Below are positions 2,930 to 60,390 of a stretch of 64,000 nt of DNA, piece after piece. The stretch covers positions 31,443 to 95,442 of the forward strand of contig JAWANB010000001.1 of the NCBI GenBank assembly GCA_038895675.1, read 5' to 3'. Below the pieces are notes generated by a model. That model was not told where the DNA came from and did not search any database. It saw only the letters and a list, made by a program, of their open reading frames with translations. Origin of the DNA: Candidatus Iainarchaeum sp. (GTDB lineage: Archaea; Iainarchaeota; Iainarchaeia; Iainarchaeales; Iainarchaeaceae). Position 1 is the stretch's first letter, and each line of letters opens with the position of its first letter. The translations under genes were made by a program, and so were the position numbers.

Positions 2930-3691
2930 TTATAAGCATCCAGCTGCTGCAAAGTCACGCGCTAGCACATTATAATTGTATTCAATATACCCCGTATTAC
3001 CAAAAGTTATTGTAAGCTTTAATTCACCAGGCCTATCACCTAAGAATATGAAAGGTGCAGAAGTTCTTGCAAGGTCTTTTTGGTATATTGAAGCAGTTTT
3101 ACCAGCTTTGGCTGAAAACTTGTAAGCGTTGTTAGTGCTTAAAGTATCAGTAGTATCTAATATTTGGGCTTTTATTGTGACAGGCTTTAAGTAACTGAAA
3201 TCAGTTTGACCAGTATTCTTAAAGTGTATTATTTTTATTCCAAGACCTCTTTTTCCTTCAAACTCTGGCGGACAAAAGAAAACTACTTCTTCTACTTTAA
3301 TATTATCTAACTTTGGTATTTTAGGTTCTTCAATTGGCTTTTGTTCACATTTACAAGATTTGCATACTTTATCATTACCGCAATCAGCATCAACTTCACA
3401 TTCTTCGTTAGCTTCTTTTACTTTATTCCCACACACTGGTGCTAATTCAACTTGAACCTTTTCTTCTGTATTTTCTGTAATTTCCTCACTACTAGTTTCA
3501 TTATTGCTAGTTTCACTATTGTTATTAACTACTTGAGCTTCATATATTGGTACAACTTGTTTATTTTCAACTACTTTATCATTAGTAAAAAATATTAAAA
3601 AACCAGTTATTGCAAGCACTCCCAAAAAAGCAAATACTAACAAAACTAACAATAAAGTTAATCCTATCAAAACAAGTTTGTCTCTATCCAT
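2930..3691 (-). CDS. Hypothetical membrane-anchored secreted protein with an acidic low-complexity segment and a Cys-rich module.
   Basis: N-terminal TM helix (LVLIGLTLLLVLLVFAFLGVLAITGFLIFF). Acidic Ser/Thr/Glu-rich linker. The Cys-rich block is CGNKVKEANEECEVDADCGNDKVCKSCKCE. Confidence 0.45.
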   Translation of the reverse strand: MDRDKLVLIGLTLLLVLLVFAFLGVLAITGFLIFFTNDKVVENKQVVPIYEAQVVNNNSETSNNETSSEEITENTEEKVQVELAPVCGNKVKEANEECEVDADCGNDKVCKSCKCEQKPIEEPKIPKLDNIKVEEVVFFCPPEFEGKRGLGIKIIHFKNTGQTDFSYLKPVTIKAQILDTTDTLSTNNAYKFSAKAGKTASIYQKDLARTSAPFIFLGDRPGELKLTITFGNTGYIEYNYNVLARDFAAAGCL

Positions 3692-3888
3692 GCTACTTAA
3701 AATTTACTTTGACTAAATATTTAAGGCTTTTTGTTTGTAAGGCTCTTTAAACTTCTTTTGTTTTTGACTTCAAAGTCTCTTTTAAGTCTTTTGTTTGTTT
3801 AAGCTCGCACCATACTCGTTTTAAAAGTCATTTTTAGGCTTTTAATTTTGCCATATTTTGTCATGCAAAAATTGCTTTTGTTCTAGTG

Positions 3889-4584
3889 TTAGCCGTATTT
3901 TTCAGTCTTTATCATTTCTTTAGGCACATTATTTTCAATTAATATTTTTTCAGTGTCTAAAACCATTGCTGGCGGGCCACATATAAAGTAATAACTTTCC
4001 TTGTTTTCTTCTACTATTTTTTTGATTAGTTTTGAATCTATTCTACCAAAGTAATACCCTTTCCTTTCTTCTCTACTCAGACAATACACTAATTTTATTC
4101 CTTTTATTTTTTTAGCAAATTCATCAAAATCATTTTTACAAATAATATCTTGCTCTGTTTTGTTCGAATAATACAAACTCACTTGAGTATCCAAGTTCTT
4201 GTCTAAAACGTATTGACAAAAACACCTAAAAGGTGCTATTCCAGAACCTGCAGCTAACAAAACTATTTTTTTCATTTTTTCAGGCTCAAACACAAAATGT
4301 CCCCAAGGACCATCCAACAAAAATTCTTCACCTAAAGGTGCAGTAGTCAATAGCTTTGACACATAACCTTCAGGCATTTGCTTTATCGTGAACTCTAAAA
4401 TACCTTTCCTTTCAGGAGAACTAGAACAAGAGTAAGACCTCTTTGGTATTTTTTCTTTTCTCAAGAATTCTATCATAAAAAATTGACCAGGCTTAAAATC
4501 AGGCCTTTCAGGACATTCAAAGGTTAAAGTGTAAGAGTCATGAGTCTCTTGTTTTACTTTCAAAAGCTTAGCCTTAAATTTCAT
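3889..4584 (-). CDS. FAD/NAD(P)-binding oxidoreductase, ferredoxin-NADP reductase-like (PyrK/HydG-like lacking a C-terminal Fe-S domain).
   Basis: FNR-like beta-barrel plus Rossmann fold. Motifs: RSYSCSS (the RxYS FAD motif), LLAAGSGIAPF (the GxGxxP NAD motif) and a C-terminal FICGPPAM. Confidence 0.65.
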   Translation of the reverse strand: MKFKAKLLKVKQETHDSYTLTFECPERPDFKPGQFFMIEFLRKEKIPKRSYSCSSSPERKGILEFTIKQMPEGYVSKLLTTAPLGEEFLLDGPWGHFVFEPEKMKKIVLLAAGSGIAPFRCFCQYVLDKNLDTQVSLYYSNKTEQDIICKNDFDEFAKKIKGIKLVYCLSREERKGYYFGRIDSKLIKKIVEENKESYYFICGPPAMVLDTEKILIENNVPKEMIKTEKYG

Positions 4585-4715
4585 GCAAAAGAAAAAAGTT
4601 AGACCTCTTTTTAATTTTATTTGTTAGCATTTAATTTTGAATTTTAACACGAGTTAATCGTTTTTAATAAGTATTATTATCCAATATTTATTTGGGATAA
4701 AAAGGAGGGAAAATT

Positions 4716-5321
4716 ATGCCATTTGCTTTACCAAAACTAAACTATGATTTTAATGCACTTGAACCATACATAGACGAACAAACAATGAGAATTCATTATG
4801 GAAAACACCATCAAGCTTACATTGACAAATTAAATGCCGCAATACTAAACACCAAATTTGAAAAAATGCCAATAGAAGACATACTAAAAGACTTAGAAAA
4901 AGTTCCTGCTGAAATAAGACAAACAATAAGAAACAATGGAGGAGGACACTACAACCATTCTCTCTTTTGGGAACTAATGAGTCCAAAAGGAGGAAAACTA
5001 ACTTCAACAATACAAAAAGCATTAGAGAACACTTTTGGCTCTTTCGAGTCCTTCAAAGAAAAATTCAAAAACGCAGGCCTAAATCAATTTGGATCAGGTT
5101 GGGCTTGGTTAGTAGTTTCAGACAAAAAACTTGAAATAATATCAACTCCAAATCAAGATAATCCTATTTCACAAAACAAAACACCAATATTAGGCGTTGA
5201 CGTTTGGGAACACGCATACTACCTAAAGTACCAAAACAGAAGAGCAGATTACTTAGAACAATTTTTCAACGTCATTAACTGGGAAAAAGTTGAAGAACTT
5301 TATAAAAAAGCACTCAAATAG
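4716..5321 (+). CDS. sodA: Fe/Mn superoxide dismutase.
   Basis: LPKLNYDFNALEPYIDEQTMRIHYGKHHQAYIDKLN...DVWEHAYYLKYQNRRADYL are classic Fe/Mn-SOD signatures. A strong RBS, AAGGAGGG, lies 8 nt upstream of the ATG. Confidence 0.95.
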   Translation: MPFALPKLNYDFNALEPYIDEQTMRIHYGKHHQAYIDKLNAAILNTKFEKMPIEDILKDLEKVPAEIRQTIRNNGGGHYNHSLFWELMSPKGGKLTSTIQKALENTFGSFESFKEKFKNAGLNQFGSGWAWLVVSDKKLEIISTPNQDNPISQNKTPILGVDVWEHAYYLKYQNRRADYLEQFFNVINWEKVEELYKKALK

Positions 5322-5446: not shown

Positions 5447-5713
5447 TTGTATAAAACGTTCAAAATACAAGTCTTTGCAGAAAGCCTTTTAGTAAAAGAA
5501 TTGTTCAAATATTCTGTTCCATATGCGTTCATCAAATTCGAGCAGACAGGAGACCTTGTCAAAGTGAAAATCAAAGAAGAAGAATTATTGCAAGTAAGAG
5601 AAACAATTCAAAAAATAAATCAAATAATTCAAATAGAAATAATGCCAGACCCAACACCATTTATAAGGCGATGCAAAGATTGTGGTTATTTTAAGATTTG
5701 CAGAAGGGCATAA
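5447..5713 (+). pseudogene. Remnant ORF whose C-terminus has a Cas4/RecB-family nuclease-type CX2CX5C motif. Likely a degraded gene fragment.
   Basis: The frame is open from 5393 with no ATG, and the track uses a TTG start. The C-terminus is ...IMPDPTPFIRRCKDCGYFKICRRA. The C-x2-C-x5-C spacing is the Fe-S cluster motif that ends Cas4 and DUF83 nucleases. There is no room upstream for a nuclease core, because sodA ends 70 nt away. Confidence 0.3.
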
Positions 5714-5803: not shown

Positions 5804-6754
5804 TTATTTGTAAAGCATTCCATAATAAAGATTTTCAATTATGCCCCAATAAGTCTGTCTTTTTCCAGTTTCAGCATCAATAGGCATTTTATCACTAACT
5901 AAGTACTCTGGCGGGAAAGCATAATAAGCTACTCTGCCTCCAACTCCTGAAGTCACTATTATTGGAAAACTCTTTCCAAAATTTTGAGTTTTGCTTTCAA
6001 GCCAAGCATGATCTGCCTTTCCAACAAGATTAAAACCATAGTCAAGGTAAGCAGAAGACTTTTGATAAGCTAATTCATTTAAATTAACAATCGAAAAATC
6101 ACCATAAAGAGGCAATTTTTGGCTTAAACCATACGAAAGCTTATCACCAGAATCAACAAAATTTATATATCCTGCCAAGTCATTGCCTTTACATTCAGTT
6201 AATTCACACCTATTAGCAATAAATTGCACACCAAGTGTATAATCAAACGAAATTTGTTTTTCTCCTTCTTTTCTCGCCCAAGGCCCCAAATAAGCATCCT
6301 TTCCACCTTTTTTTCTTTCCGACTCAAGCAAAAGCTCTTCTTCTTTAGCAATAGTACCAGCATCACCTATCCAAACCAATTTTCCTCCTTTTAAAACATA
6401 TTCTTGGAACATGATCAACTCATCAACACTAATCTCTTTTGCTCTTTCTACTATGACTAATTGATACTCTTGCAACAAGGGCAAAGAAACAGATTCCAAG
6501 TCAATTAACTTGACCCTTGCAGAAATTCTCGGAGAACGCAAAACCTCGGCTAAAAAAAATGGATTTCCTAGACCTTCATCACCATACACTATTAACACTT
6601 TAGGTTTGCCACCTGCAACTATACTATAATAAACATCACAACCAAGCTCACTATAAAAACTACATGGCACTATGTTAAAATAAACGAGAGAAACACCAAG
6701 AACAATTAATAGTATTACCAAAACTACTAATTTTACTAACAAATTAGAGTTCAT
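5804..6754 (-). CDS. Membrane-anchored extracytoplasmic protein of a conserved paralogous family (see 59311..60258). Function unknown.
   Basis: N-terminal TM. Blocks shared with the paralogue: GCDVYYSIVAGGKPKVLIVYGDEGLG, YQLVIVERAKEIS...GGKLVWIGDAGT, LGPWARKEG...SFDYTLG, GVGGRVAYYAFP and a C-terminal LYYGMLYK. It is the last gene of the giant surface-protein operon. Confidence 0.6.
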   Translation of the reverse strand: MNSNLLVKLVVLVILLIVLGVSLVYFNIVPCSFYSELGCDVYYSIVAGGKPKVLIVYGDEGLGNPFFLAEVLRSPRISARVKLIDLESVSLPLLQEYQLVIVERAKEISVDELIMFQEYVLKGGKLVWIGDAGTIAKEEELLLESERKKGGKDAYLGPWARKEGEKQISFDYTLGVQFIANRCELTECKGNDLAGYINFVDSGDKLSYGLSQKLPLYGDFSIVNLNELAYQKSSAYLDYGFNLVGKADHAWLESKTQNFGKSFPIIVTSGVGGRVAYYAFPPEYLVSDKMPIDAETGKRQTYWGIIENLYYGMLYK

Positions 6755-6889
6755 ACTAAAACAACAGATTTAGACAATTAAAGCTTTTCTAATGTCGATA
6801 AGATTTGGAATCGTTGACAATTTTTAGCATAATTAGAGTGGTTGCAAATAATGTTTATTGATAATATGCTTAAAAAGTTCTAATTTCTT

Positions 6890-9800
6890 TCAATTATTAT
6901 AGCATTTATTCACTTCTATTCCTTCTATGTTGTTGATTTTAGTTCTCAAATCTTTCACTAACTTTGATTCATTCCACCATAAACCAGTTCCAATAGGTAT
7001 CAAAGTATTTCCCTGCCTGATGCTGCTGTTTGCTATGCATGCTCTTTCTTCTTGTATTTGTTCTATTGCTTCTGAAAAAGTTTTTACTGAGTTAGTAGGT
7101 ATTTCAAAAGTGTATTGGGAATTGTTTTTTATTTCAACAAAACCAATTATGTTTCCTCGTGAATCCAATTTAGCAAGATAAATTTTTCCTGCGCTCAAGC
7201 ATGCGTTCTTTAATATCAGTCCTTCTGAATTTGGGTAGAACATTGTTTCAAAAAGTATTGTGGCATTGCTTTGTCTTGCAAAACCATAAAGTTTTTGGAA
7301 AATGTTAGCTCTTTCAAAAGTACACCATGGCTCAGTTAAATTGCTTTCTCTTTCTCTATCAGTGCCAATGCTAATTGGCAAAACTGCTCTTGTTTCTGCA
7401 TCTTGGCATTGTGTTTGTGCATTTATTGGCTTGTATGCTGACTCAACTAATTTTGCAAGGTAAGCTCCTGTGTTTATGTTTCCTCTTGTTGTGTCAGATA
7501 TAGAATAAGAGACTGCTGTAAAACCAGTGTTTGGTTCTGGTTGAGCTAATAATACTGCCGGAAATGGTGTTGAAGGAGAAAAGTAAACTTCGTAAGTGTT
7601 TTCTTCGCCGTCTTTTTTTGTAATATTAAGCAAGTTTCCCGCAGTGTTTTTTTGAGTATCTATAAAATTTTTGCCAATAGTTATTTCAAGCCATGCTACT
7701 GGAGTACTTTCACTTTTTGTTTCACGTGTTTCTACTGAATGTGAAGCACTTTTACTACTTATTATTATTTTTTCTCCTTTAAATCCTAACCCATAGCCAT
7801 TTCTCAAATATTTTCCATCTTGTTGCAATCCTAATTCAGCATCGAAAGGTAACATGTACAAAATATTAGGTTCTAAGTCGTTTATTTTTTCAAGGTTTAT
7901 TGTGATTTGAGCTTTAGGGTTATTTAACGCATCAAAAAATTCCCAAGCACTCCCTCTAAACTCCATTATTATGTTGACACGATAAATTCCTGGCTCGTGA
8001 ACTTGTTTTCCAAGTTCAATATTATTGTTTTTGCTAAACCTTAAGTTTGTGGGATTAGAAAAATATTTTTTCCACTTTGTGTTATAACTTTGGTCTAATG
8101 TAAAAAACTTTTGTGAATAGTATTCATCCCAATCTCTCATAAATTCGTTTGAAAAGCCATCTTTCATTAGATACGCATTAAAAGAGGTTTTTGAATTGGC
8201 TTCTTCCAATTTGTTTTCAGAAGCAAGTTGTTCTATGTTTTGAAGTCTTTTCAGTAATGAAAGCATAAATTGAGTTGAATCACATACAATTGGATTATTA
8301 GGATTACTGCATGTTTGTTCAGTTATGTTGTTAGGTTGCCAGTCATACAAAACTTTTGGCATTGCTTCTCTTCCTGTTGTTGCAAAATTGTTTTGTTGGC
8401 CTCTTATAAGACTTCCTTCCAAATTTTTGCATAATCCGACGTTTGTTGAGTTAATTCCTATCATGAATCTTTCTTTGTCAATCCAAAATAATTTTAAGTC
8501 GAATTCTTTAATTGGTCTTGGATCGTTTTCAGTGTAAGCTGTTTTAGCATAAGCGTTAAATCCTTGGTTTCCTTGGGTTGTGTTCTGTACTACAAAGATT
8601 TCTGTTTTTCCTCCTGAAAAACTTTTAACAGGGCCTGGGTTGGTAAAGGTTCCTTCTGGGCTAGTTATAGTTATGTCTGTCATGGTGTATGTTATTGGGC
8701 TACTGCTATCTGGCGATTCTGAAAGTTGTGGCGAAAAAAATCCTAATGGTTTAGTGCCTTCAAATGCGTTTACCTTACTGGTTACTATTTGTTGTTGTGT
8801 TGAATTAACTATTCTTTGTGGACCTAAACTCATGTTAAGCACAGAATTTTCTGTTTTTAACAGTTGAGTCGTATTGTCAAATTCAGAGCTCAAGTTTACT
8901 CTAACAAAGTCACTTTTATAACTACCTTCAATACCAACAATTCCAAACACTTCATAATAATAGGTTTTTTGTCCAGCTCCTGAAACTGAAAATCTTGTCA
9001 AACCACCTTCAGAGTTAAGTAATCTTAATGCGTTGCTGTTAGTGCAATCACTTATAGAATGAAATCCAGCAGTGGCAACCAATGCGCCTGTTTCGTCAAA
9101 AATATTTGCTGTAAAAGCTGGTTGATCATACAACGAATTGTTTGGTGAATCCGTGCAAGTTTGGATCAAGTATTCTTTTCCTCCTTCAACGACAAATTCG
9201 CCTCTTTTTCTATAAGGGAATAGTGCAAAGGCGTGAGGTCTAAAAGAGACAGAGACATCAACCGGTTTTAGGCCGAAACTAAGGTCGTATTCTTTTTGGG
9301 TTATGTCAGTGAATTTAATATTCAAGCCGGCTTTAGTTGTTTCAGGAGAACTTCTCGGCAGTTTTGCAACAAATTTTTCAAGCAACAAATAACTTTTTCC
9401 GGCTTCTATTGTGATTTCGTTGTTCATTGCTTCAAAATCAGGGAAAGAACAATTTTGTTTCAAACCTTCAGCACATTGTGTATCATAAACTCCAATAATT
9501 TTTATGTCTAAAGGTCCTTTGTTTAATATTTCCCATCTCATGCTTTTTTCTGCTGAATTTTCTATCTCATAAACGTTTTTTTGAAGACCAAAAATAGACT
9601 TGTCAGGAGCTAAGACTTCAACGTCACTTGGACCAACAATCACATCAAATTCCTTGTACAAACCCCATTCACTAGCGTTAGTAGTTTTTTGGTATTCTAT
9701 TCTTAAAGTATAAATTCCTTTAGAGTTGAAAGTATAAGCGTCAAAAGACCTTTTGTCTCCAACAACAGCATTTCTAATTCCATCACATCTGCACACTTCA

Positions 9801-10165
9801 TAATTTTTTACTGAATAATTGCCAGAAGTCTCAACAAAACTATCGCTTTTTTTTTCAAGCACTCTTACTGCTAAAGGATTGTCTTTTGAAGCTCCATCAA
9901 TACAGTGCAAAGTATATTCATTTATATTCTCTAACCTTAGCTTAGTACCAGGACTAACAACATAAGTTTCTCTTTGAGAATTTTGAAGTGGAATAGCCGA
10001 TGGTGTGAAAGTCATTTGCATTGTTACAGATGGAATAGGTTCGTTGCCAGTATAAGGTTTTGTACCCCAATAATGGCAATGAGACCCACCACAAGTTTGA
10101 ACCCCGAAAGTCAAAGAAGAAAAAACAAAAACAATAATAAAAAAAACAAAGTAATAGGTTCTCAT
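6890..10165 (-). CDS. Giant secreted or surface protein (1091 aa), hypothetical.
   Basis: N-terminal signal/TM segment (MRTYYFVFFIIVFVFSSLTFG). Many N-x-S/T sequons. No C-terminal anchor. Its start overlaps the upstream gene by 4 nt (ATGA). Confidence 0.6.
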   Translation of the reverse strand: MRTYYFVFFIIVFVFSSLTFGVQTCGGSHCHYWGTKPYTGNEPIPSVTMQMTFTPSAIPLQNSQRETYVVSPGTKLRLENINEYTLHCIDGASKDNPLAVRVLEKKSDSFVETSGNYSVKNYEVCRCDGIRNAVVGDKRSFDAYTFNSKGIYTLRIEYQKTTNASEWGLYKEFDVIVGPSDVEVLAPDKSIFGLQKNVYEIENSAEKSMRWEILNKGPLDIKIIGVYDTQCAEGLKQNCSFPDFEAMNNEITIEAGKSYLLLEKFVAKLPRSSPETTKAGLNIKFTDITQKEYDLSFGLKPVDVSVSFRPHAFALFPYRKRGEFVVEGGKEYLIQTCTDSPNNSLYDQPAFTANIFDETGALVATAGFHSISDCTNSNALRLLNSEGGLTRFSVSGAGQKTYYYEVFGIVGIEGSYKSDFVRVNLSSEFDNTTQLLKTENSVLNMSLGPQRIVNSTQQQIVTSKVNAFEGTKPLGFFSPQLSESPDSSSPITYTMTDITITSPEGTFTNPGPVKSFSGGKTEIFVVQNTTQGNQGFNAYAKTAYTENDPRPIKEFDLKLFWIDKERFMIGINSTNVGLCKNLEGSLIRGQQNNFATTGREAMPKVLYDWQPNNITEQTCSNPNNPIVCDSTQFMLSLLKRLQNIEQLASENKLEEANSKTSFNAYLMKDGFSNEFMRDWDEYYSQKFFTLDQSYNTKWKKYFSNPTNLRFSKNNNIELGKQVHEPGIYRVNIIMEFRGSAWEFFDALNNPKAQITINLEKINDLEPNILYMLPFDAELGLQQDGKYLRNGYGLGFKGEKIIISSKSASHSVETRETKSESTPVAWLEITIGKNFIDTQKNTAGNLLNITKKDGEENTYEVYFSPSTPFPAVLLAQPEPNTGFTAVSYSISDTTRGNINTGAYLAKLVESAYKPINAQTQCQDAETRAVLPISIGTDRERESNLTEPWCTFERANIFQKLYGFARQSNATILFETMFYPNSEGLILKNACLSAGKIYLAKLDSRGNIIGFVEIKNNSQYTFEIPTNSVKTFSEAIEQIQEERACIANSSIRQGNTLIPIGTGLWWNESKLVKDLRTKINNIEGIEVNKCYNN

Positions 10166-11892
10166 TCAAACTCACCACTATAAGAATTTCTTTTTCTGAC
10201 TATTAAATAAACGCCTACAATAAAAATGCCTAACCCAATGGCTAAAATCATTAAAACAAAATTATTGTTTTGAACATCTTGCGATTTATCATTAACACTT
10301 ATTATTTTGCCTTCATTTTCGTTGCAAAAACCAAGACAGCACTTAGTGTTATTCACTTCAACGATTGTGCCAGAGCATTCAGCATTACATTCAACAGCAC
10401 CTAAAGCACTACAACTTTGCAGTACTTCTTTTTTTACTGAAATTTTTTCAGATATTTGTGTCCTATTTAAAAAGTCGTCAACTATGTACAAATAATCGCC
10501 TTCTAAAGCTCTCAAATATTCTTGCTTACATGAAACGCCTTCAACTTTAAATGCAGACAATTCAGAGCCAGTACTCAAATCTATTATAGTAAGTTTAGCA
10601 TTCAAATCTTGCTTTTCGTTTTTTTCGTTGAAACCGCATAATTCAAAAAACAATTTTTCGTCTATATCAGAATAGGTTGCCTTTACTTCTACTCTTCCTT
10701 TTGGTGATATGTTTTCTTTTATTGGTTTTACTTCATAACAATAATAATCGTAAATAACGGAATTTTTTTCTATTTTAGCACAAACCAAAAAGTTCTCAAT
10801 ATTTTTTGTAGAAACAAAGTCAAAGTCGAGACTTAAAAATTCGTCATAAAAACCAAGTTTTTCTATTTGTTTTTCTTTTGAAAAAATTTTTTCGGTGCCA
10901 ACAATGGCTTCGATTATTACTTTAAAATCTGAGAAATCAGGGTAAGTATAGTGGTCTGGGCTTGAGCCAATAAGGACTGATAAATAATTGCCTTTAAAAT
11001 CTAATTTCCAAATTCTTGCAGTACCACCCTTTACTATCAATCTGTTTCTGTATAGAGCCAAAAGGTTTCCTTTTTCGTTTTGAATCTCTATTCTAACAGC
11101 ATAAGCACTTGGAATTTCAGGGGCAATTAATTTTAGTTCTATAGATTTTTCAGAATTAGGGCTAATCGTAAATTCTGAATTTACTTCTGAAATAAACTTG
11201 TTTTGTGACAAACAAATTGTGTCATCCCAATCGCACAATTTCACCACAACAATGCCTTTTTGTTCTGACCTTGAAAAGTTTTTTACGAAAACAATACCTT
11301 TGACTTCTTCTTTTGGCATTACTGGAGCACCTATAGGCCCAGCAATTCCATTAAATGTTGTTTTTTCATAATCTATGCTTAAGTCTGGTTTGTTCCCTTT
11401 GCCTAACACTTCAAATTCTAAACTTTTAGGGCTACTAAAAATATGTACAATGCCAACAGCTGGAATTCTTCCATTTTTAAAGTAAGCATCAAGAGTATAA
11501 GTTCCTTTTTTTAAGTCTCTCGGCAAGTCAATTTCAAACTTCACATCGATAATAGCCTTAGGAGGTAAAGCTACTGGAAGTACTTTTTCATAAATTATTG
11601 TGCCTTCCCCGTCTTTTATAACAGAAAATTGCGAAGGATAACTCAAACTATTTTGATTGCCTTTTACGACCTCTAAAACTAAATAGCCGTCATAGAGTGC
11701 AAAATCTTCAAAATTAGTTATTTTTGCTGTTCCTTTCACTTTTTCATTTTCATTGAAAACGTTTTTCTCCAAACTTATTTGCATGTCTATGTTATAATTA
11801 TAAGATGCTAATGACAAATTTAAAAAAAATAATAACATAAAAGCAATTAACACTGGTTTGAAAAAATTTGTAACTCTACTTTTTGAAATCAT
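10162..11892 (-). CDS. Type-I membrane surface protein (576 aa) with a Cys-rich stalk and a C-terminal TM anchor.
   Basis: N-terminal signal sequence. Cys-rich segment CSALGAVECNAECSGTIVEVNNTKCCLGFC. C-terminal TM FVLMILAIGLGIFIVGVYLIVRKR. It overlaps both neighbouring genes. Confidence 0.6.
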   Translation of the reverse strand: MISKSRVTNFFKPVLIAFMLLFFLNLSLASYNYNIDMQISLEKNVFNENEKVKGTAKITNFEDFALYDGYLVLEVVKGNQNSLSYPSQFSVIKDGEGTIIYEKVLPVALPPKAIIDVKFEIDLPRDLKKGTYTLDAYFKNGRIPAVGIVHIFSSPKSLEFEVLGKGNKPDLSIDYEKTTFNGIAGPIGAPVMPKEEVKGIVFVKNFSRSEQKGIVVVKLCDWDDTICLSQNKFISEVNSEFTISPNSEKSIELKLIAPEIPSAYAVRIEIQNEKGNLLALYRNRLIVKGGTARIWKLDFKGNYLSVLIGSSPDHYTYPDFSDFKVIIEAIVGTEKIFSKEKQIEKLGFYDEFLSLDFDFVSTKNIENFLVCAKIEKNSVIYDYYCYEVKPIKENISPKGRVEVKATYSDIDEKLFFELCGFNEKNEKQDLNAKLTIIDLSTGSELSAFKVEGVSCKQEYLRALEGDYLYIVDDFLNRTQISEKISVKKEVLQSCSALGAVECNAECSGTIVEVNNTKCCLGFCNENEGKIISVNDKSQDVQNNNFVLMILAIGLGIFIVGVYLIVRKRNSYSGEFE

Positions 11893-14800
11893 TGACGCTC
11901 ACCAAGAAAAAATTATTTGAAACTCTTATAGGCCTAATATCATAAGTCTGTTCACTGTAAAAATTTTGTGGATTCTTAGTTTCGTTAGTCAAGGTAAAAT
12001 ACAATGATTGATTCAAGTTGTTAGATCCAAGGTCCACTTTCGGATTTTCGTTATCTGAAAAACCAGTATAACACTTGTTTATTACTTTTACAATTTCTTT
12101 TGACTCAGAAAAGTCAAGCAAAACTCTTTTCGTGTTAGTATTATTCACAACTCTTTCAAGGCTTAAGCACGAATTGTTTGTTGTTGCTATTGCAAGTACA
12201 AACCCCAAATAAAATTCTCTTTGATCTTTTTTTGCATTTAAAAATATTGGATGAACTCCCAATTGTTTACCTTGAGTAATGCTCACTACTTCGGTTGCGT
12301 TATTCGATAACGTGAAATTAGTTTTTGAAATACTTATATCGCTTTCAGCGGCTTTTGACAATTTTATTTCCACTTCAGACCCACAATTATCATTTTTTAT
12401 GGTTATATTAACAGGCGTAGCATTACAAGAAGTGCCATTACAATTTCTTGAATTAAGCTCTATTTCAGTATTGGAAGGACTTTGCTCATCAACTTTTATG
12501 CACTCTAAACTAGGTTGAGTTGGTAAAAGAACTTCTTGTTGTGTTACTCTTAATTCTTTTGTTGCGCTAACATAATTATCTTTAGATGCAACAACCTCAA
12601 AAGTAGTTGAAACAGCATAACTTTGTGGAAAAATTATAGTGAATTGTCCTTGGCTATTTGTTTGGCCACCAATATTTAGTTTTGTTTTACTTTCACCTTC
12701 TTTTTCGAATACTTCTATTAATGCACCTTGTAAGGCTCTATTAGCGTTGTCCTTTGTAGTGGCAATGACAATTTCATTAGGCTGTGGTTTTATTGTGTCT
12801 TTATCTAAAGTCAAAAACAACTGGTTTAATGCTGAAATACTAAACAACATTTCTGCTTCTTTTCCTCTTTCTTCAACATTTAAGCTCATTTTTAGTTTTA
12901 TTGAATTAACTGGTTTCAATGCTGTTAATGTTAAGTTTAAAGTAGCTGTTTGATTAGGCGAAAGTCTACCTATTGAACCACTATTTGGAGTTATTTGTAT
13001 TGGGTTAGGATTTATAGTAGGTTCAATAGTGAAAGACATTTGAAGGTTTTCAAAAATTTTTTTAGTAGAATTCAATACTTCTATTGCTATGTCATATTGT
13101 TCATTTTCTCTTAATTCAATAGTTCCTTCGAGTGCATCACGCCATTCTCTAATATGACCATTTTGAGAGGATTTTATTTTAGCACTAATCAAAAATCCAC
13201 AATTACTAGTGCAAAAAGAAGAATTCAAAAAAGTAGTCCACAAGTAAAGCGAATTCCTGTTAGGCTTGTATTCTTCGTTATCGCCTTTCTTGGTTTTAAT
13301 TCCATACCTTAATTCTACTTTAGTGTTATTTTCTTGAGTATCTTCAACTTCCTTTATGAAAACATTAGCAAACACTATGTAGACACCATCATCAGCCGAG
13401 TTCAAAGACAAAATAGCTTGTTTCGCATCATTGTCCGTTGGAGAACAATCCTCATAATTGTTTTGGGGATTAAAGCAAGATGAATAAATAACGTTTAGGT
13501 TTGGTGAATCTATTCTTTTTATAACCATTGTGGAATTGTTTGCATTCAATTGATTTTCTAAGCTCGTCCTAATAACTGCTTTTACGTCGCTTTTTTCCGC
13601 TCTATCTACTATAAGATTAAATTTGAAGACATAGTTTTTGTTATCTTCAAGTCTTGAAACTTCTCTTCCAGAAGTATCTAAAACTTTGTCAAGAAGTATT
13701 TCAGCAGGCTTGAATTGTTGATTTTCAGGAATTGCTTTTAAAACAATTTCTATTGATTGAGTCGCATTAGGCAAAATTCTTACACTAGGATGCCTAGTAG
13801 TATAATAACCTTGTTTGCTAACCACTATCATTGGACTTTTATCTGCTGAAAACTCTTTTTTTTGCGTCCTGCCTTGTGCATTAGTAGTTTCTCTGCCAAT
13901 TTCTCTATTGTTTTCAACAAAAGAAACTGAGGCACCTTGTACAGGCCTATTGCTTTCATCAACGACCTTCACTTCAATAAAGCCATTTGAAATTACCAAA
14001 ACTATTTCTAACTGAATTTCACTACCTTTAGACAAAGATTTTTCTCCTGAAAAATTAGAATGCTCTTTGCCATTAATTTCTTTCAATGCTTTTGCTTTAT
14101 AATTTCCAGGCGGCAAATTAATGAATTCTATTAAGCCGTCTTTGTCTGTAAGTCCATCAGCAATAGGAAAAGAAAAGGCAGAAGAATAAAGAAAAACAGA
14201 AGCGTTTTGAACTTTGTTGCCTCCGTATTCAGAAACTATTACTTTAGCTTTGCCTGAATTATTTGAAGTTACCTTGTCTAACTTTACTATAGTAGGTTGA
14301 TTATTATTTGCAAACTTCAAATTATTAATTACTTTTAGCACATAATTAGGATGCGAAGCTATTACTAAGTATGCTTTTTCTTCTAAGCTAAGATTCTGAA
14401 AGTTGACTATTCCATCATTGTTTGACCTCAAAGAAACACTCTGTCTATTATTGGCTATTAATTGTGCAAAAACATTACTAATAGGATTGTCATTGCTTGA
14501 ATCAACAAATTTGATTAAAATTTTTTTAGCACTGTCTGTTTTTTTCATTCTTATTTCAACAGTATAAGGTTGATTTGAAGAAAATTGAGCATCAGCAATA
14601 GTGAATTCGTCGCTATAAGCAATACCATAAGTACTTCCAGAAGGAGGTCTTGCTTCAATAACATAAGTGCCAGCACTTACGTTTTCTACTATTTTAGAAC
14701 CTGAGTTGTCCGTCGTCCCGCCTTGGAAAGCAATTACTTCTCCTTTCAAGAAAGTCAAGTAAACTCCACTAATTGGCTGAGAAGTATCATGGTCCTTTAC

Positions 14801-15601
14801 TAATACTCTTACATTAGCAAGCAAAATTTCTTTTCTCAAATTCACTATAACAGTCCCTTCAGTAATCGCTAAGTCTATTGTCTTTCTAGTCTCTTCAAAG
14901 CCGCTTGCCCTAACCAAAGCAACCAAAGTTCCGCAAGCAGATTGCACGCTTACCCTATGAATTGCTCCTTTAGAATTAATGTTTGCAGGAACATACTTTG
15001 AATCAGAACAAGAAAAACTAATCGAGACAGAAGTGTTAGAACTAATTAGGCCTTTTTCATCTCTTAACTCATAAACTATTTGCTTGAGTTTTGAACTAAC
15101 AGATTTTTCAAGAGTAATTTTGTATAACTTTCTTGGCTCTATTTTAATTTCTTCTTCAAATGGCTTAAAGCCACTTGCTTTGACAGAAACTTTTGCTTTG
15201 TCCCCAAACAATTTAATTTTTGCTTCACCAAAAGAGTTTGTAGTCATACTTTCCTTAGCACTACCAACTTCAACTATTATTTCAGCGTTTTGAATTGGAT
15301 TTTCAGAATTATCCATTACCACTATTTTTGCACTATTATCTCCTGACCAAAAAGAAAAAAGTGAGGCAATCAGAGACCAAATAGCTTTTGAAATAGGTTC
15401 AAGAGGCCCTCCTTGATTACCAAAAAAAAGCAAAAGAATGAAAAAAAAGAGCAGGAAAACAAAAATTAAAACTAATACAAAAGAAGGAAAAACTCGGTCT
15501 ATTGGGTCAATTATTCTATACACAGGTATTTTTTCGTTAATTTTATCAAGGAATTCGTAATAGCGATCCTCAAAAAAATAATAAAAATCCTTCAATTCCA
15601 T
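11876..15601 (-). CDS. Giant surface protein (1241 aa) with multiple CarboxypepD_reg/transthyretin-like (PEGA-like) beta-sandwich repeats and an N-terminal TM anchor.
   Basis: N-terminal TM (FVLVLIFVFLLFFFILLLFF). Repeated modules of the type AKIVVMDNSENPIQNAEIIVEVG...SFGEAKIKL, KVQNASVFLYSS...DGLTDKDGLIEFINLPPGNYKAKA and VKVVDESNRPVQGASVSFVENNREIGRETTNAQG. Sequons are abundant. Confidence 0.65.
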   Translation of the reverse strand: MELKDFYYFFEDRYYEFLDKINEKIPVYRIIDPIDRVFPSFVLVLIFVFLLFFFILLLFFGNQGGPLEPISKAIWSLIASLFSFWSGDNSAKIVVMDNSENPIQNAEIIVEVGSAKESMTTNSFGEAKIKLFGDKAKVSVKASGFKPFEEEIKIEPRKLYKITLEKSVSSKLKQIVYELRDEKGLISSNTSVSISFSCSDSKYVPANINSKGAIHRVSVQSACGTLVALVRASGFEETRKTIDLAITEGTVIVNLRKEILLANVRVLVKDHDTSQPISGVYLTFLKGEVIAFQGGTTDNSGSKIVENVSAGTYVIEARPPSGSTYGIAYSDEFTIADAQFSSNQPYTVEIRMKKTDSAKKILIKFVDSSNDNPISNVFAQLIANNRQSVSLRSNNDGIVNFQNLSLEEKAYLVIASHPNYVLKVINNLKFANNNQPTIVKLDKVTSNNSGKAKVIVSEYGGNKVQNASVFLYSSAFSFPIADGLTDKDGLIEFINLPPGNYKAKALKEINGKEHSNFSGEKSLSKGSEIQLEIVLVISNGFIEVKVVDESNRPVQGASVSFVENNREIGRETTNAQGRTQKKEFSADKSPMIVVSKQGYYTTRHPSVRILPNATQSIEIVLKAIPENQQFKPAEILLDKVLDTSGREVSRLEDNKNYVFKFNLIVDRAEKSDVKAVIRTSLENQLNANNSTMVIKRIDSPNLNVIYSSCFNPQNNYEDCSPTDNDAKQAILSLNSADDGVYIVFANVFIKEVEDTQENNTKVELRYGIKTKKGDNEEYKPNRNSLYLWTTFLNSSFCTSNCGFLISAKIKSSQNGHIREWRDALEGTIELRENEQYDIAIEVLNSTKKIFENLQMSFTIEPTINPNPIQITPNSGSIGRLSPNQTATLNLTLTALKPVNSIKLKMSLNVEERGKEAEMLFSISALNQLFLTLDKDTIKPQPNEIVIATTKDNANRALQGALIEVFEKEGESKTKLNIGGQTNSQGQFTIIFPQSYAVSTTFEVVASKDNYVSATKELRVTQQEVLLPTQPSLECIKVDEQSPSNTEIELNSRNCNGTSCNATPVNITIKNDNCGSEVEIKLSKAAESDISISKTNFTLSNNATEVVSITQGKQLGVHPIFLNAKKDQREFYLGFVLAIATTNNSCLSLERVVNNTNTKRVLLDFSESKEIVKVINKCYTGFSDNENPKVDLGSNNLNQSLYFTLTNETKNPQNFYSEQTYDIRPIRVSNNFFLVSVNDFKK

Positions 15602-15643
15602 AAAACCGCCAAAAGCTCTTTAATAACAAGCTTTTTTTTATTT

Positions 15644-16756
15644 TTAAATATTACTAACTTCCCAAACCAAAGACTCTAAAATTTTCTTTATACTCAACTT
15701 TCTGACAAATAAGCAAGAGTCTGACGCTCCACCAAACACTAACAACTCGTCACTCGAGCCTTGTAAAGCAGAAGTAGGAAAAACAACATTGCTTACAAAA
15801 CCAGTTTTTTCAAAAGCTTGTTTCGGAGTAAAAAGAGGCTTGTTTTCAGGAGACCTTGCTATTATTTTTTTCATTTTTTTGTCGAAGACAACAGCACCAG
15901 CACTATAAACCTTGTATTCTTCACCTTTTTTTCTAACTAATTTTACGCCATGATAAATTTCAAGCCAACCCTCTTTGATTCTTATTGGCACAGTTCCAGA
16001 CCCGATTCTTAAGCTATCCCAACCTTTTTTTCTAGGCCCCATTATGGGCCTTTCTTTTCCCCAAAAAATCAAGTCTTTAGAAAAAGAAATCCAAATACGG
16101 GGCTTGTCAAAAATCATAGTGCCCTCAGGCCTGTGCAAGGCAACGTAATAACCATTTATTTTTTCAGGCAAAATAACAACGTCCTTGTTTTGTTGCCTGA
16201 ATATTATGCCATGCCTTTTCCACGTCTCAAGGTTATGAGAAGTAGCAAGAGAAGTTGAAACACCAGAGCACATAGACACAGACACGTAAGTCATAACAAA
16301 TTTTTTTTCGTCTTTGAGAAAAGTAATGCGAGGATCTTCAACCCCAAAATCGCCATCATCTTTCAAACCAAAAAAATCTGGTTTTTGAGATATTGACAAA
16401 ACTTTTGTACCTGTTTCATCTAAAAGAATTTTTCTAAAATGAGAGATGGTAGGCAACCTTGCTTTTTCAGAATCAAAAATAAAATAGTTGTCTAAAGACT
16501 GAAATTTTCCTTTTTTTCTCGGCAAAGTTTCAACAATAATTTTCAATTCTTTATTTCCAACGAACCTTGGAGCCAAAAAATATTTTTCGCCATGCAAAGG
16601 CGTTTCGGCAATTCGTGCAAAAAGCAATATTTTGTTATCTTTTAGCCTAACCGCAGCAGGATTAAAAACACCCCTAACTCTAAAATTTTTTAACGTTGGA
16701 TTAATAGACGTAGGGCTTAAAATCAATGTAGATTTAGTCATGAAATGAAAACACAA
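15644..16756 (-). CDS. Glycoside hydrolase family 130 (beta-mannoside phosphorylase-like, DUF377).
   Basis: GVFNPAAV, FGVEDPRITFL, WLEIYHGVK and GFVSNVVFP are GH130 five-bladed beta-propeller signatures. Confidence 0.7.
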   Translation of the reverse strand: MCFHFMTKSTLILSPTSINPTLKNFRVRGVFNPAAVRLKDNKILLFARIAETPLHGEKYFLAPRFVGNKELKIIVETLPRKKGKFQSLDNYFIFDSEKARLPTISHFRKILLDETGTKVLSISQKPDFFGLKDDGDFGVEDPRITFLKDEKKFVMTYVSVSMCSGVSTSLATSHNLETWKRHGIIFRQQNKDVVILPEKINGYYVALHRPEGTMIFDKPRIWISFSKDLIFWGKERPIMGPRKKGWDSLRIGSGTVPIRIKEGWLEIYHGVKLVRKKGEEYKVYSAGAVVFDKKMKKIIARSPENKPLFTPKQAFEKTGFVSNVVFPTSALQGSSDELLVFGGASDSCLFVRKLSIKKILESLVWEVSNI

Positions 16757-16787
16757 AACCTAAATAAAAATCTAACGAAAATTTTTA

Positions 16788-18977
16788 TTACAAAATCTTA
16801 GAAATCATCATTCGAGCCAACAAATAAGTCACAGTTGCCTCTGCGCCTTCGTTAGCATTAACACCATTTTTTGTCAAACCGTCAAAACAACCGCCAGTAG
16901 CTTCATCATAAACCATGAGATTTGAAGTGTTTTTTCCTAAATACCAATCAAAAGAAGACCTTGCTTTAATTGCGTATTCTTTATTTCCAGTCTTCTGAAA
17001 AGCTCTAATATACGCGGTAGTCATTACACTAGCTTCTATTGGCTGCTGATCAAAATGAGACCTCTCTAAGTCTTTTACAAACCATTTTTCCTGTCCAATA
17101 GGAACTAACTTGCCACCTATAAACAAAGTCTTAGTCAAAAAGTTCAAAGATTCTTCAGCAACCTTTAAAGCTAAACCTGTTTTATCATAGTTATCTGCAA
17201 TAAATAAAGCCTCTGGAATGCTCCCATTTGCATAAGTCAAAGATTCCTCAAACCAGTTCCAGTCAACATTAGAAACTTCGTTGTACTTGCTAATCAAAGA
17301 CTCAACAAGTTTTTCTCTCATACCATTTCCAAACATGCCATTTACTTGTGACAATCCAATTAAAGAGTAAGCCTCAGCTCTAGTAGACTCTAACTCTAAC
17401 CCAAAATCAATAGTCTTTTCAAGCATATGCTTAGCCTTAAGCTTAAGTTCGTCAGGCAAATTAGAGTCAAGAACATGGCCTAAAGCCCAAATAGCTCTAC
17501 CTTGAGAATCTTCACTACCAACATCATCCAAAAATTCTCTATTTTCATCCACGAAATTATGAAACTTACCATCTTGCATTTGGCAATAATCTAAAAAATT
17601 TAAGAAAATATTTGAAAGCCTGAGCATCTTTTTTGAACCAAACTTAGAATAAGTGTCAGCAGCAACAACCAAAGCACGAGCATTGTCATCAAGAGTATAA
17701 CCACTATTTATGTCAGGCTCAGAATAATTACAAAATTGTATAATACCGAAGTCGTCAGTTAACTTGTAAAAATGCTTGAAATTCAATGGAGGAAGTCTTC
17801 CAAAAGAGCAATCCTCAATATTAGAAATTTCTTTCAACATGCCAAAATAAGAATTTGCAACATTAGGCCAAGTCATTTTTCTGCTAAACTCAAAAACGTT
17901 TTTTGAAAAATTTAAACTCATTTGCTGATTGTCCAAAAACTTACAAATAGCATTTGCAAAATAACCAGGTTTATTTTGCCTTACCACGATACCTCTATTT
18001 TCAGCCAACATTTCCTTATTATACCTAGTAAAAGAAGCAACTATTGGCTTTCCAGCACCCATTGCATAACTAACAGTCCCACTACAAATCTGATTTTTAT
18101 CTAATGCTGGGGCAACATAAACATCACAAAGTTCAAGAAATTCAATGATTTCATTCAAAGACAAAAACTTATCAATAAACTTTACTTTTCCAATAAGATT
18201 ATTTTCCTGAACCAAAGATTTCAAATAGTCTCTATATTCTTCTCCAAAAATCTTTCTTACTTTAGGATGAGTCTCGCCCAAAACCAAATAAATGGCATTT
18301 GGATGCTTTTCAAGTATTTTAGGCATGGCTAAAATTATGTTTTCAACCCCTTTACCTTTACTCAAAAGACCAAAAGTAAGCAAAACTTTTTTATCGGTCA
18401 AATCATACTTTCTTCTAAGTTTTTCCTTGTTTTGAAAAACCATAGAAGGGACTCCATGATAAATGACCTCTATTTTAGAGCCGTCTATTTTGTAGTTCTT
18501 TTCAAGCAACTCTTTAGCAGTGTTGGTCATGACAACTATTTTCTCACTATACTCAGATATGCCTCTCACAACTTGCTTCATTTCTGACTTTGGATTCTTA
18601 AGCACAGTGTGCATTGTAGTAATCATTTTTTTGTTTGTTAATTCCATGAATCTCAACAAATGGCTACCGAATTTGCCACCAAAAAGTCCGAATTCATGTT
18701 GAATATTAACTAAACCAATGTTTTGCATTTTGTTTATTTTCTTAGCTGCCTTTTCATAACTCTCCAATTCTTGTTCAACAAAACTACCAATGACTCTTTT
18801 ATCATAATCACGTAATATGTGAGAATCTTCGTTTATACAAAAAACCTTAGGAACTAAAATCATTCCAAATTTTTTTTGCAAAGCATCGCACAAATTTTTA
18901 GTAAAAGTAGCAATACCACATTCTCTTGGCGGATAACTTGAAACCATTAGTATTTTTTTAGGGTACTCACCCATCAA
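16788..18977 (-). CDS. Fusion protein: N-terminal GT4 glycosyltransferase plus a C-terminal six-hairpin (amylo-alpha-1,6-glucosidase/GDE_C-like) domain.
   Basis: N-terminal half has GT4 features (KILMVSSYPPRECGIATFTKNL...GETHPK...KFIDKFLSLNEIIEF...APALDKNQICSGTVSYAMGAGKPIV). C-terminal half (about 350 aa) has LDDNARALVVAAD...GRAIWALGHVL, like the WxRD-type (alpha/alpha)6 glycosidases. Confidence 0.6.
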   Translation of the reverse strand: MMGEYPKKILMVSSYPPRECGIATFTKNLCDALQKKFGMILVPKVFCINEDSHILRDYDKRVIGSFVEQELESYEKAAKKINKMQNIGLVNIQHEFGLFGGKFGSHLLRFMELTNKKMITTMHTVLKNPKSEMKQVVRGISEYSEKIVVMTNTAKELLEKNYKIDGSKIEVIYHGVPSMVFQNKEKLRRKYDLTDKKVLLTFGLLSKGKGVENIILAMPKILEKHPNAIYLVLGETHPKVRKIFGEEYRDYLKSLVQENNLIGKVKFIDKFLSLNEIIEFLELCDVYVAPALDKNQICSGTVSYAMGAGKPIVASFTRYNKEMLAENRGIVVRQNKPGYFANAICKFLDNQQMSLNFSKNVFEFSRKMTWPNVANSYFGMLKEISNIEDCSFGRLPPLNFKHFYKLTDDFGIIQFCNYSEPDINSGYTLDDNARALVVAADTYSKFGSKKMLRLSNIFLNFLDYCQMQDGKFHNFVDENREFLDDVGSEDSQGRAIWALGHVLDSNLPDELKLKAKHMLEKTIDFGLELESTRAEAYSLIGLSQVNGMFGNGMREKLVESLISKYNEVSNVDWNWFEESLTYANGSIPEALFIADNYDKTGLALKVAEESLNFLTKTLFIGGKLVPIGQEKWFVKDLERSHFDQQPIEASVMTTAYIRAFQKTGNKEYAIKARSSFDWYLGKNTSNLMVYDEATGGCFDGLTKNGVNANEGAEATVTYLLARMMISKIL

Positions 18978-19021
18978 TTCACCACAAAAAAAGACTATTA
19001 TATCTAAATTGCTGCAACTAA

Positions 19022-20605: not shown

Positions 20606-20656
20606 GCTAAATAGTAGAGTGTATAATATTTAATTTTTGTCATTCAATATGACACT

Positions 20657-60258: not shown

Positions 60259-60304
60259 CTACTTTCACATTTTAATTATTTACTTTTGAAAAAAACTTGC
60301 AAAA

Positions 60305-60390
60305 TGCAGGAGGGAGGATTCGAACCTCCGAAGGCACTAAGCCACTGGCACCTCAAGCCAGCCCAATTGACCGGACTATGGGACTCCTGC
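60305..60390 (-). tRNA. tRNA-Leu (anticodon GAG), type II with a long variable arm. CCA is not encoded.
   Basis: The reverse complement folds as follows. Acceptor GCAGGAG/CTCCTGC. 3-bp D stem. Anticodon stem CTGGC/GCCAG with loop TTGAGGT. Long variable arm. T arm GGAGG-TTCGAAT-CCTCC. Discriminator A. Confidence 0.85.

Follow-up and report, generated by a model that had tools for sequence, protein, structure and literature searches.

We analyzed a cluster of four genes, here named A to D, that encode predicted surface proteins in a 64,000-nucleotide stretch of DNA (the window) from Candidatus Iainarchaeum sp. (GenBank assembly GCA_038895675.1, contig JAWANB010000001.1, positions 31,443 to 95,442 of the forward strand). 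The organism belongs to the Iainarchaeota, which are part of the DPANN kingdom Nanobdellati. All four open reading frames (ORFs) lie on the minus strand and together span 9,798 bp (Table 1). The coordinates and lengths given in an earlier, sequence-only reading of the same DNA were reproduced exactly, and hydropathy agrees with it that all four products are membrane anchored or exported. Comparison with related genomes gives good support to the view that the locus is a split variant of a phylum-wide, N-terminally anchored giant surface protein, with gene B inserted between the two halves.

Table 1. Genes, protein regions and upstream signals of the A-to-D locus (positions in the window)
Feature	Position	Strand	Basis
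Gene A, 1241 aa	11876..15601	(-)	ORF list
A, residues 1-39, conserved cytoplasmic N-terminal motif	15485..15601	(-)	Ortholog alignment
A, residues ~40-62, single transmembrane signal anchor	15416..15484	(-)	Kyte-Doolittle peak 3.57 over residues 33-67
A, residues ~89-623, transthyretin-like/CarboxypepD_reg beta-sandwich array	13733..15337	(-)	Pfam, local jackhmmer repeats
A, residues 624-1241, C-terminal half	11879..13732	(-)	Pfam, repeat search, alignment
aaaaaaagcttgttattaaa, A/T-rich BRE/TATA-like element	15619..15638	(-)	About -18 to -37 from A start codon
Gene B, 576 aa	10162..11892	(-)	ORF list
B, residues 494-523, 6-Cys block	10324..10413	(-)	Alignment
B, residues 542-567, transmembrane segment	10192..10269	(-)	Hydropathy
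GGTGA, Shine-Dalgarno-like motif of B	11899..11903	(-)	6 nt upstream of B start, within A end
Gene C, 1091 aa	6890..10165	(-)	ORF list
C, residues 22-584, N-terminal beta-rich half	8414..10102	(-)	Sequence
C, residues ~585-1091, C-domain (~480-500 aa)	6893..8413	(-)	Exhaustive profile search, domain mapping
GGTGA, Shine-Dalgarno-like motif of C	10172..10176	(-)	6 nt upstream of C start
Gene D (D1), 316 aa	5804..6754	(-)	ORF list
AAAGCTTTAATT, BRE/TATA-like element	6776..6787	(-)	-33 to -22 from D start codon, C-D spacer
D2, second D paralog, 315 aa	59311..60258	(-)	Identical or near-identical to P0031

Gene layout and protein architecture

Genes A and B overlap by 17 bp and genes B and C by 4 bp (ATGA), whereas C and D are separated by a 135-bp spacer, so that only the first three genes fit the earlier description of four translationally overlapping genes. 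We compared all upstream regions in the window: many first genes have a TATA-like hexamer about 25 to 34 nt before the start codon and no Shine-Dalgarno motif, and internal genes have GGTGA about 6 nt before the start, several of them sharing the motif and spacing seen at B and C. Gene A has no GGTGA upstream and is preceded, inside the 42-bp spacer that follows a GH130 gene, by aaaaaaagcttgttattaaa, which resembles a transcription factor B recognition element (BRE) and TATA box; the lack of GGTGA suggests that its transcript is leaderless. GGTGA is likewise absent upstream of the D start in the 135-bp spacer, which holds AAAGCTTTAATT, and the elements before A and D are both AAAGCTT-TATA-like. 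Because A and D show the first-gene pattern and B and C the internal-gene pattern, the likely transcription units are A-B-C and a D gene with its own promoter. By their overlaps and signals, A, B and C make up a unit of three genes coupled in translation, and the operon of four genes closed by the 316-aa gene that was proposed earlier is accordingly reduced to A-B-C, probably an operon, with D probably promoted separately.

The genes are intact and under purifying selection. Compared with locus L001, the closest relative (58 to 64% identity), A, B and C have ratios of nonsynonymous to synonymous substitution rates (dN/dS) of 0.13, 0.24 and 0.12, respectively, and dS is close to saturated; in the alignments, conservation runs over the full length, many Cys residues are invariant and no hypervariable region is seen in A, B or C; and the G+C content of the cluster (0.31 to 0.34) is the same as that of the remaining window. 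Together, these observations argue that the genes are neither pseudogenes nor compositionally foreign. The possibility, raised earlier, that the ORFs are fragmented pseudogenes is ruled out by intact, full-length orthologs that are collinear in several other assemblies and by the dN/dS range of 0.12 to 0.24. When A, B and C were compared with one another as possible paralogs, no relationship was found.

Hydropathy gives A a single N-terminal transmembrane (TM) segment after a 39-residue cytoplasmic segment. The latter carries a motif with the consensus Y...EDkyY..lD.....iPvyk..DpIDkvvPSF, placed directly before the signal anchor, which is invariant in three orthologs and 50 to 80% or more conserved over 52 fused giant proteins (described below); in the giants it forms a separate profile stretch (E values of 1e-16 to 1e-23), and no Pfam model covers it. 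Beyond the anchor, CarboxypepD_reg (PF13620) matches A in four stretches (E value of 3.8e-33; 114.1 bits against a cutoff of 32.3), and local jackhmmer searches resolve six beta-sandwich modules (residues ~93-175, 266-354, 361-436, 452-535, 541-623 and 951-1023), in agreement with the earlier picture of an N-anchored protein built from repeated CarboxypepD_reg modules. Further domains over the Pfam threshold are SpaA, Big_1, bMG3, CarbopepD_reg_2 and SdrD_B, and the Pfam matches also include PEGA-type beta-sandwich and Ig_DR_A0283-like domains. The profile check proposed earlier for delimiting such domains places these beta-sandwich families in A and finds no PF13620 in B or C. In the C-terminal half of A, no Pfam family exceeds threshold and only the last CarboxypepD_reg-like module is present, and this half is conserved in orthologs and, to profile position ~1,200, in the fused giants. 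Profile searches of A against PDB sequences, Pfam and NCBIfam found nothing outside the beta-sandwich domains.

B has the topology of a type I membrane protein: a signal peptide (residues 1-29), a beta-rich ectodomain of ~460 aa, the TM segment and a short basic tail. Its 12 Cys residues are mostly conserved and include the block C494, 502, 506, 518, 519 and 523, which bears out the Cys-rich stalk described earlier. Searches of Pfam, PDB sequences and NCBIfam gave no significant match to B, Mannosidase_ig being matched only weakly (E value of 0.0055). From its type I topology, beta-rich ectodomain and Cys-rich stem, B might be read as a class II (fusexin-like) fusogen, but this idea has no support in sequence.

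C has an N-terminal signal peptide (residues 1-21) and no anchor, as the earlier reading stated. Of its 17 Cys residues, 14 are invariant across six orthologs, and the protein has no match in Pfam, NCBIfam or PDB sequences. The same holds in Pfam and PDB sequences for its C-terminal region, here called the C-domain, including when an 18-sequence profile is used; the residues invariant in it (Cys, Gly, Pro, Trp, Asp, Arg and Asn) do not show the Ser/His/Glu pattern that hydrolases typically have.

Sequons for N-glycosylation (N-x-S/T) number 23 in A (1.85 per 100 aa), 17 in C (1.56) and 5 in B (0.87), and there are none in D. A and C rank first and second in density among the 59 ORFs of the window, about fourfold over a background of 0.43, and few sequon positions are conserved in orthologs. 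No excess was found over shuffles of the same composition (z of 1.45, 0.44 and 1.07), so the density follows from Asn/Ser/Thr-rich composition, and enrichment beyond composition (z ≤ 1.45) was rejected. The earlier description of three giant sequon-rich proteins therefore applies to A and C relative to their neighbors, with density explained by composition, and not to B, which has 5 sequons and, at 576 aa, is not giant.

Conserved gene order and fused giant relatives

Synteny was assessed with local hidden Markov models of the four families on contigs encoding homologs, in a scan of GTDB species genomes and in a metagenome scan with the B profile; loci and proteins are referred to here by L and P numbers. 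The order A-B-C is constant in at least nine loci (the window, L001/L011, L003, L007/L014, L008/L018, L012, L013, L016 and L017) and partly visible in two more (L002 and L015), even though the loci sharing it are only 29 to 64% identical. B is invariably between A and C in these split loci, and orthologs of A (1226 to 1350 aa) stand upstream of B in L001, L003, L007, L008, L012, L013, L016 and L017. In the synteny comparison, relatives do not have unrelated genes here. Of the 10 loci that could be assessed for D, 7 have it in the cluster: directly after C, abutting or overlapping, in L003, L007 and L008; after 135 to 672 bp in the window, L013 and L016; and convergently in L002. The B and D families also occur unlinked elsewhere in the phylum, and stand-alone B homologs on other archaeal contigs (L019-L021, 29 to 36% identity) have no adjoining A or C.

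A protein identical to C is annotated in a metagenome-assembled genome (MAG) of Candidatus Diapherotrites, and all named relatives are annotated Candidatus Diapherotrites or Iainarchaeum, which makes the host a DPANN archaeon, in line with the earlier inference of a small-celled one. An exhaustive HMMER search with the C-family profile yielded 491 cluster representatives (clusters at 50% identity) at E values of ≤1e-3 and 432 at ≤1e-10. A word-indexed homolog search had returned three C relatives, whether run with a single sequence or with a 6-sequence profile; such searches under-report divergent families, and this one missed, e.g., the proteins of L003, L007 and L008 in public assemblies, so that the count of only three homologs was an artifact of the word index. 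The families extend across the phylum and are thus wider than the earlier description of lineage-specific sequence suggests. About a dozen of the matches are full-length C orthologs, and most others cover only profile positions ~585 to 1080, that is, the C-domain.

When the best 150 of the 491 C-family matches were compared with the profiles of A, B and C, a relationship emerged that the sequence-only reading had overlooked. About 60 of these 150 are single proteins of 2,200 to 2,990 aa that combine A (positions ~3-1200) with C (~585-1080): their first ~1,150 to 1,200 residues fit the A profile nearly end to end, N-terminal motif and TM segment included (E values down to 1e-153), and their last ~480 residues fit C positions 585-1080. 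One giant (L010) is an uninterrupted ORF of 2,240 codons. Examples, all uncharacterized, are MFH1255884.1 (2,236 aa), MCX6802905.1 (2,991 aa), HLC79114.1 (2,333 aa) and MBI2530172.1 (2,823 aa, annotated “carboxypeptidase regulatory-like domain-containing protein”), and the giants that are named come from Candidatus Diapherotrites, Iainarchaeum or “archaeon.” At the three genomic contexts examined, the giants stand alone among genes for proteasome, Cdc6, PolD, SepF, fibrillarin/Nop and aminoacyl-tRNA synthetase proteins, with no B- or D-like neighbors. It is therefore well supported, from these comparisons, that A and the C-terminal half of C correspond to separated halves of what is a giant single chain in most relatives. 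Because the two occupy opposite ends of one polypeptide, a Rosetta-stone argument predicts that A and C act together physically. In a neighbor-joining tree of the C-domain, the C proteins of split clusters form one clade nested among fused forms, from which the split form is probably the derived state, i.e., the product of a fission.

The C-domain also occurs at the N- or C-terminal end of other secreted Iainarchaeota proteins (P0195, P0247, P0156 and P0151). Its partners there are dockerin with CBM4_9, Peptidase_C25, papain-like Peptidase_C1 with PEGA, and PKD with dockerin. That it is common to many different exported proteins suggests a docking or oligomerization module.

Two further observations concern the giants. 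Among 18 examined, 8 (P0209, P0150, P0164, P0211, P0139, P0205, P0136 and P0176) have in their middle regions, ~180 columns before the C-domain, a hydrophobic strand followed by D-x-S-x-S-M, which resembles a metal ion-dependent adhesion site (MIDAS). A divergent vWA insert may account for this stretch; of the eight, only P0136 was scanned, and it has no Pfam VWA match. Pfam likewise finds no VWA in A, B or C. Near the giant of one Diapherotrites genome lie two IS605 OrfB/TnpB-type (Cas12f1-like_TNB) genes (L023, 959..2173 and 3556..4770).

Gene D, its paralogs and the neighboring genes

The earlier reading described D as an N-anchored protein of an uncharacterized family. The N-terminal TM segment (residues ~3-27) is present and is the only one; its fold is recognizable, since residues ~46-316 form an extracytoplasmic GATase1-like domain of the GldG/DUF4350/GIFT type, a flavodoxin-like exo-domain that resembles the GH42 trimerization domain. 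An AlphaFold2 model built on a 58-sequence alignment has a mean predicted local distance difference test score (pLDDT) of 94.2 and a predicted template modeling score of 0.91. Family matches are below threshold: PF09822 (ABC_transp_aux, GldG) scores 18.9 bits against a cutoff of 34.7 (E value of 9.4e-4, residues 51-136 only), and TIGR03521 scores 12.1 bits against 389.85. ABC_transp_aux is weakly matched by 8 of the 58 family members and DUF4350 by none. Across these 58 members there is no invariant or near-invariant His and no invariant Cys within the domain, the sole invariant Cys being the juxtamembrane C39 before it, and the turn after strand 125-129 reads G130-D131-A132-G133. A class I glutamine amidotransferase with a Cys-His-Glu triad is excluded on these grounds.

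Of the 111 clusters into which homologs of D fall, nearly all stem from MAGs labeled Diapherotrites or unclassified “archaeon,” and one is annotated Candidatus Woesearchaeota. In a neighbor-joining tree, the cluster-linked copies form one clade that is sister to unlinked paralogs from the same genomes, which points to a lineage-specific duplicate recruited to the split cluster; by this tree, D1 is a recent, lineage-specific and cluster-specific paralog of a phylum-wide family.

The unlinked paralog of the window, D2, adjoins a tRNA-Leu gene and lies ~2.5 kb from an ABC-2 gene pair (ABC2_membrane, 53955..55817; ABC_tran, 55814..56770). GldG is, in Bacteroidota, the auxiliary subunit of an ABC-2-type transporter. 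The tRNA-Leu(GAG) gene (88 nt, 60304..60391, minus strand) was called by ARAGORN, and Rfam at its gathering threshold finds only a tRNA-Ser (63290..63373); the tRNA-Leu(GAG) may be atypical or intron bearing. About 4 kb from D2, some 0.4 to 6 kb past where the window ends on the right, a further cluster of surface proteins is seen in L004 (1..5804), whose genome is the same as or near-identical to that of the window. It encodes proteins of 1018 aa (partial), 260 aa, 704 aa and 905 aa (VWA-domain proteins), the 704-aa protein with faint fn3_5/NPCBM_assoc/FixG_C matches, and resembles the DUF4350-vWA neighborhoods of arCOG01314. More distant D members, from two distant Diapherotrites lineages, adjoin a divergently oriented Sec61-beta gene, with no giant nearby (L005, 9684..10975; L006, 9742..10933). 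This adjacency, together with the fold similarity of D to OST48/Wbp1, hints at a role related to the translocon or to glycosylation.

Directly upstream of A lies a glycan-metabolism neighborhood (15644..22389) with genes for the GH130 protein (370 aa), a 729-aa GT4 protein with a Pfam-less C-terminal extension of ~370 aa, a PIG-L deacetylase, a second GT4 and a 527-aa fusion of a PfkB kinase with a glucosamine-6-P-isomerase/6PGL-like domain. The GH130/GT4 adjacency recurs in L001 and L007/L014 and not in the other loci. On the other side, within the 480-bp gap between D and an SOD gene, an 88-aa plus-strand ORF (5447..5713) matches Cas4/DUF83 in its C-terminal third only (positions 100-158 of the 160 in PF01930; E value of 7e-8); it overlaps an antisense 86-aa ORF and looks like a truncated nuclease remnant.

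Proposed assembly, alternatives and known systems

We consider it fairly probable that the locus is a conserved cell-surface module of the Iainarchaeota (Diapherotrites), in which a split giant protein is rebuilt as an envelope fiber for coat formation or attachment. A would insert N-in through its cytoplasmic motif and signal anchor and project a ~130-kDa rod of six or more transthyretin-like modules and ~600 further residues. C (~120 kDa) would be exported by Sec, lose its signal peptide and, lacking an anchor, dock noncovalently on the outer end of A, as the fusions predict, so that the giant architecture is restored with the C-domain distal. B, translated from the same message, with a ~58-kDa ectodomain, a disulfide-knotted stalk and a C-terminal TM segment, would probably provide a second membrane leg or an adaptor, and D1, a membrane-tethered and noncatalytic GldG-like domain, probably aids assembly or organization at the membrane surface. 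The assembled object would be a long, disulfide-stabilized, possibly N-glycosylated envelope fiber of an outer coat or attachment device, and an envelope or attachment function is plausible.

Several points weigh against this account. The middle 450 to 1,200 residues of the giants match neither B nor the N-terminal half of C (hhalign probability of 0.1% for each), and the correspondence of A and C to the giants is thus one of domains and does not run from end to end. The direction of fission depends on a rough, midpoint-rooted tree without support values. D is missing from 3 of the 10 loci (L001, L012 and L015), convergent in another and apparently equipped with its own promoter in the window. 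The AlphaFold2 model of C, built on a 3-sequence alignment, has a pLDDT of 36.8, too low for fold comparison. The many conserved Cys residues and the N-terminal anchor are atypical of characterized archaeal S-layer proteins. Finally, the interactions among A, C, B and D are deduced from gene fusion and gene neighborhood, and the proposed function is read from sequence.

A two-component S-layer, in which C is the lattice canopy, B the stalk and A a separate surface protein, would follow the model of SlaA/SlaB in Sulfolobales, a large anchorless exported protein and a smaller one with a C-terminal TM segment encoded by adjoining genes. C and B share that layout: C is exported without an anchor, B combines a signal peptide and a beta-rich ectodomain with a C-terminal TM segment, the two genes are coupled through the ATGA overlap, the ectodomains are acidic (isoelectric points of 5.0 to 5.4), sequon density in C is high, and both pairs are probably glycosylated. 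A stalk-anchored arrangement of S-layer proteins has moreover been discussed as possible in DPANN archaea in a preprint on the Micrarchaeota S-layer (10.1101/2021.04.28.441871). However, when all PDB sequences were searched by phmmer and by profile for relatives of A, B, C and the C-domain, no solved S-layer protein was matched, nor do A, B and C match an S-layer Pfam family; the 17 Cys residues of C and 12 of B, mostly conserved, contrast with S-layer proteins that are typically near-devoid of sulfur amino acids (10.1101/2021.04.28.441871); and B would have a Cys-knot in place of a coiled-coil stalk. The covalent partner of the C-domain in most relatives is A and not B; the C-domain is also found on proteases and dockerin proteins, and B homologs can stand alone without a C neighbor. 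That A and C, rather than B and C, are evolutionarily tied, with A as a third, N-anchored and likewise Cys-rich partner of 1241 aa, counts against a SlaA/SlaB-like system, which we regard as unlikely. The earlier proposal of an S-layer or attachment apparatus thus retains its conserved cluster of exported and anchored proteins, and no sequence match to a solved S-layer or adhesin structure accompanies it. A surface-tethered extracellular enzyme or nutrient-capture complex, hydrolytic or polymer binding, would suit the fusions of the C-domain to papain-like and C25 peptidases, CBM4_9 and dockerin and the adjoining glycan-metabolism genes (GH130, GT4, PfkB/GlcN6P-isomerase-like and PIG-L); against it, the C-domain has no hydrolase-type Ser/His/Glu pattern among its invariant residues, A, B and C have no catalytic Pfam domain, and the GH130/GT4 neighbors occur in some loci only. 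Such a complex seems to us very improbable.

The neighborhoods of arCOG01314 (DUF4350, GldG-like) offer a different reading, with D as the core of a derived secretion or membrane-remodeling complex that would have A, B and C for substrates or structural partners. Makarova, Galperin and Koonin (2015, PMC5898192) predicted a novel archaeal complex of this kind from neighborhoods that combine a protein with a GldG/DUF4350-like exo-domain with a vWA protein, a MoxR ATPase and Ig-like or S-layer-like proteins; the arCOG01314 proteins have a signal peptide together with one C-terminal TM segment (PMC5898192). D shares with them a membrane-tethered, extracytoplasmic GldG/GH42M-like flavodoxin-type domain, with the same fold class and the same weak matches (GldG/ABC_transp_aux, Glyco_hydro_42M and ThuA), and is set beside large Ig-like or beta-sandwich membrane or secreted proteins; the DxSxS MIDAS-like motif in 8 of the 18 giants examined and the position of D2 a few kilobases from the vWA-protein cluster of L004 also speak for a link. 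But there is no MoxR/AAA+ or vWA gene in or beside the cluster and no Pfam vWA in A, B or C, the topology of D is reversed (N-terminal anchor only), its match stays below the Pfam gathering threshold, and its association with the cluster is facultative: 3 of 10 loci do without it, and no D gene adjoins the fused giants. We give this reading a lower probability than the S-layer, although a higher one than the enzyme complex. Least probable of all is a variable, laterally acquired island for adhesion or self/non-self recognition, a counterpart of the hypervariable Ig-domain modules in Thermococcales or of host-attachment genes that are strain-specific in episymbionts. Large beta-sandwich surface proteins in a DPANN genome, the truncated Cas4/DUF83 fragment just downstream and flanking genes that differ among loci (SOD, GH130 and others) would be compatible with it. 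It is largely refuted by gene content and order that are invariant across loci 29 to 64% identical, by purifying selection, by a G+C content like that of the rest of the window, by alignments without hypervariable regions, and by families that are phylum-wide, with the fused form among core housekeeping genes. Lateral acquisition, which the earlier reading had allowed for should relatives carry unrelated genes here, was rejected on the strength of composition, selection and synteny.

The locus points to a large surface protein that is probably the main one of the phylum and that most lineages make as an N-anchored chain of 2,200 to 2,990 aa. The split form indicates the A-C interaction and nominates B and D as components that are unlinked, and hence invisible, in other genomes. 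It also brings out three families without a Pfam model or a sequence match to a solved structure, namely, B, the N-terminal half of C and the C-domain, the last of which recurs on many secreted enzymes. Nothing is overturned, as one would expect such organisms to have large surface proteins of the beta-sandwich kind; the literature searched yielded no cultured Iainarchaeota. A bolder extension, which we think as unlikely as the S-layer, is that the A-to-C giant is the principal envelope scaffold of the Iainarchaeota, with the C-domain a phylum-specific surface-display or lattice module into which other C-domain proteins plug to give a cellulosome-like, self-assembling exo-proteome. Peptidases (papain-like and C25), dockerin/CBM and PKD proteins that carry the C-domain would then attach to the scaffold. 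D would, in the same extension, represent a new role in archaea for the GIFT fold, which is that of eukaryotic OST48 and IFT52.

Beyond SlaA/SlaB and arCOG01314, other known systems help to place the locus. The GIFT-domain proteins with which D was compared are bacterial GldG, eukaryotic IFT52 and the OST48/Wbp1 subunit of oligosaccharyltransferase. Thermococcales modules with Ig domains, as described in PMC8416519, consist of a large Ig protein that is hypervariable and of gene sets downstream of it that vary, whereas here three families keep one order in at least nine loci and can be aligned over their full lengths. Bacterial giant adhesins of the SdrD/SpaA/Big type share with the present system a tandem prealbumin/transthyretin-like stalk that ends in a distinct distal domain; the system here is archaeal, is held by an N-terminal signal anchor instead of sortase or type I secretion, is encoded by split genes and has an unrelated distal domain. 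The fused giants of the same phylum differ from the locus in being single polypeptides from stand-alone genes without a B or D neighbor, whereas the C-domain is here on a separate gene, and they share with it the N-terminal motif, the TM segment, the beta-sandwich array, the C-terminal half of A to position ~1,200 and, at the far end, the C-domain.

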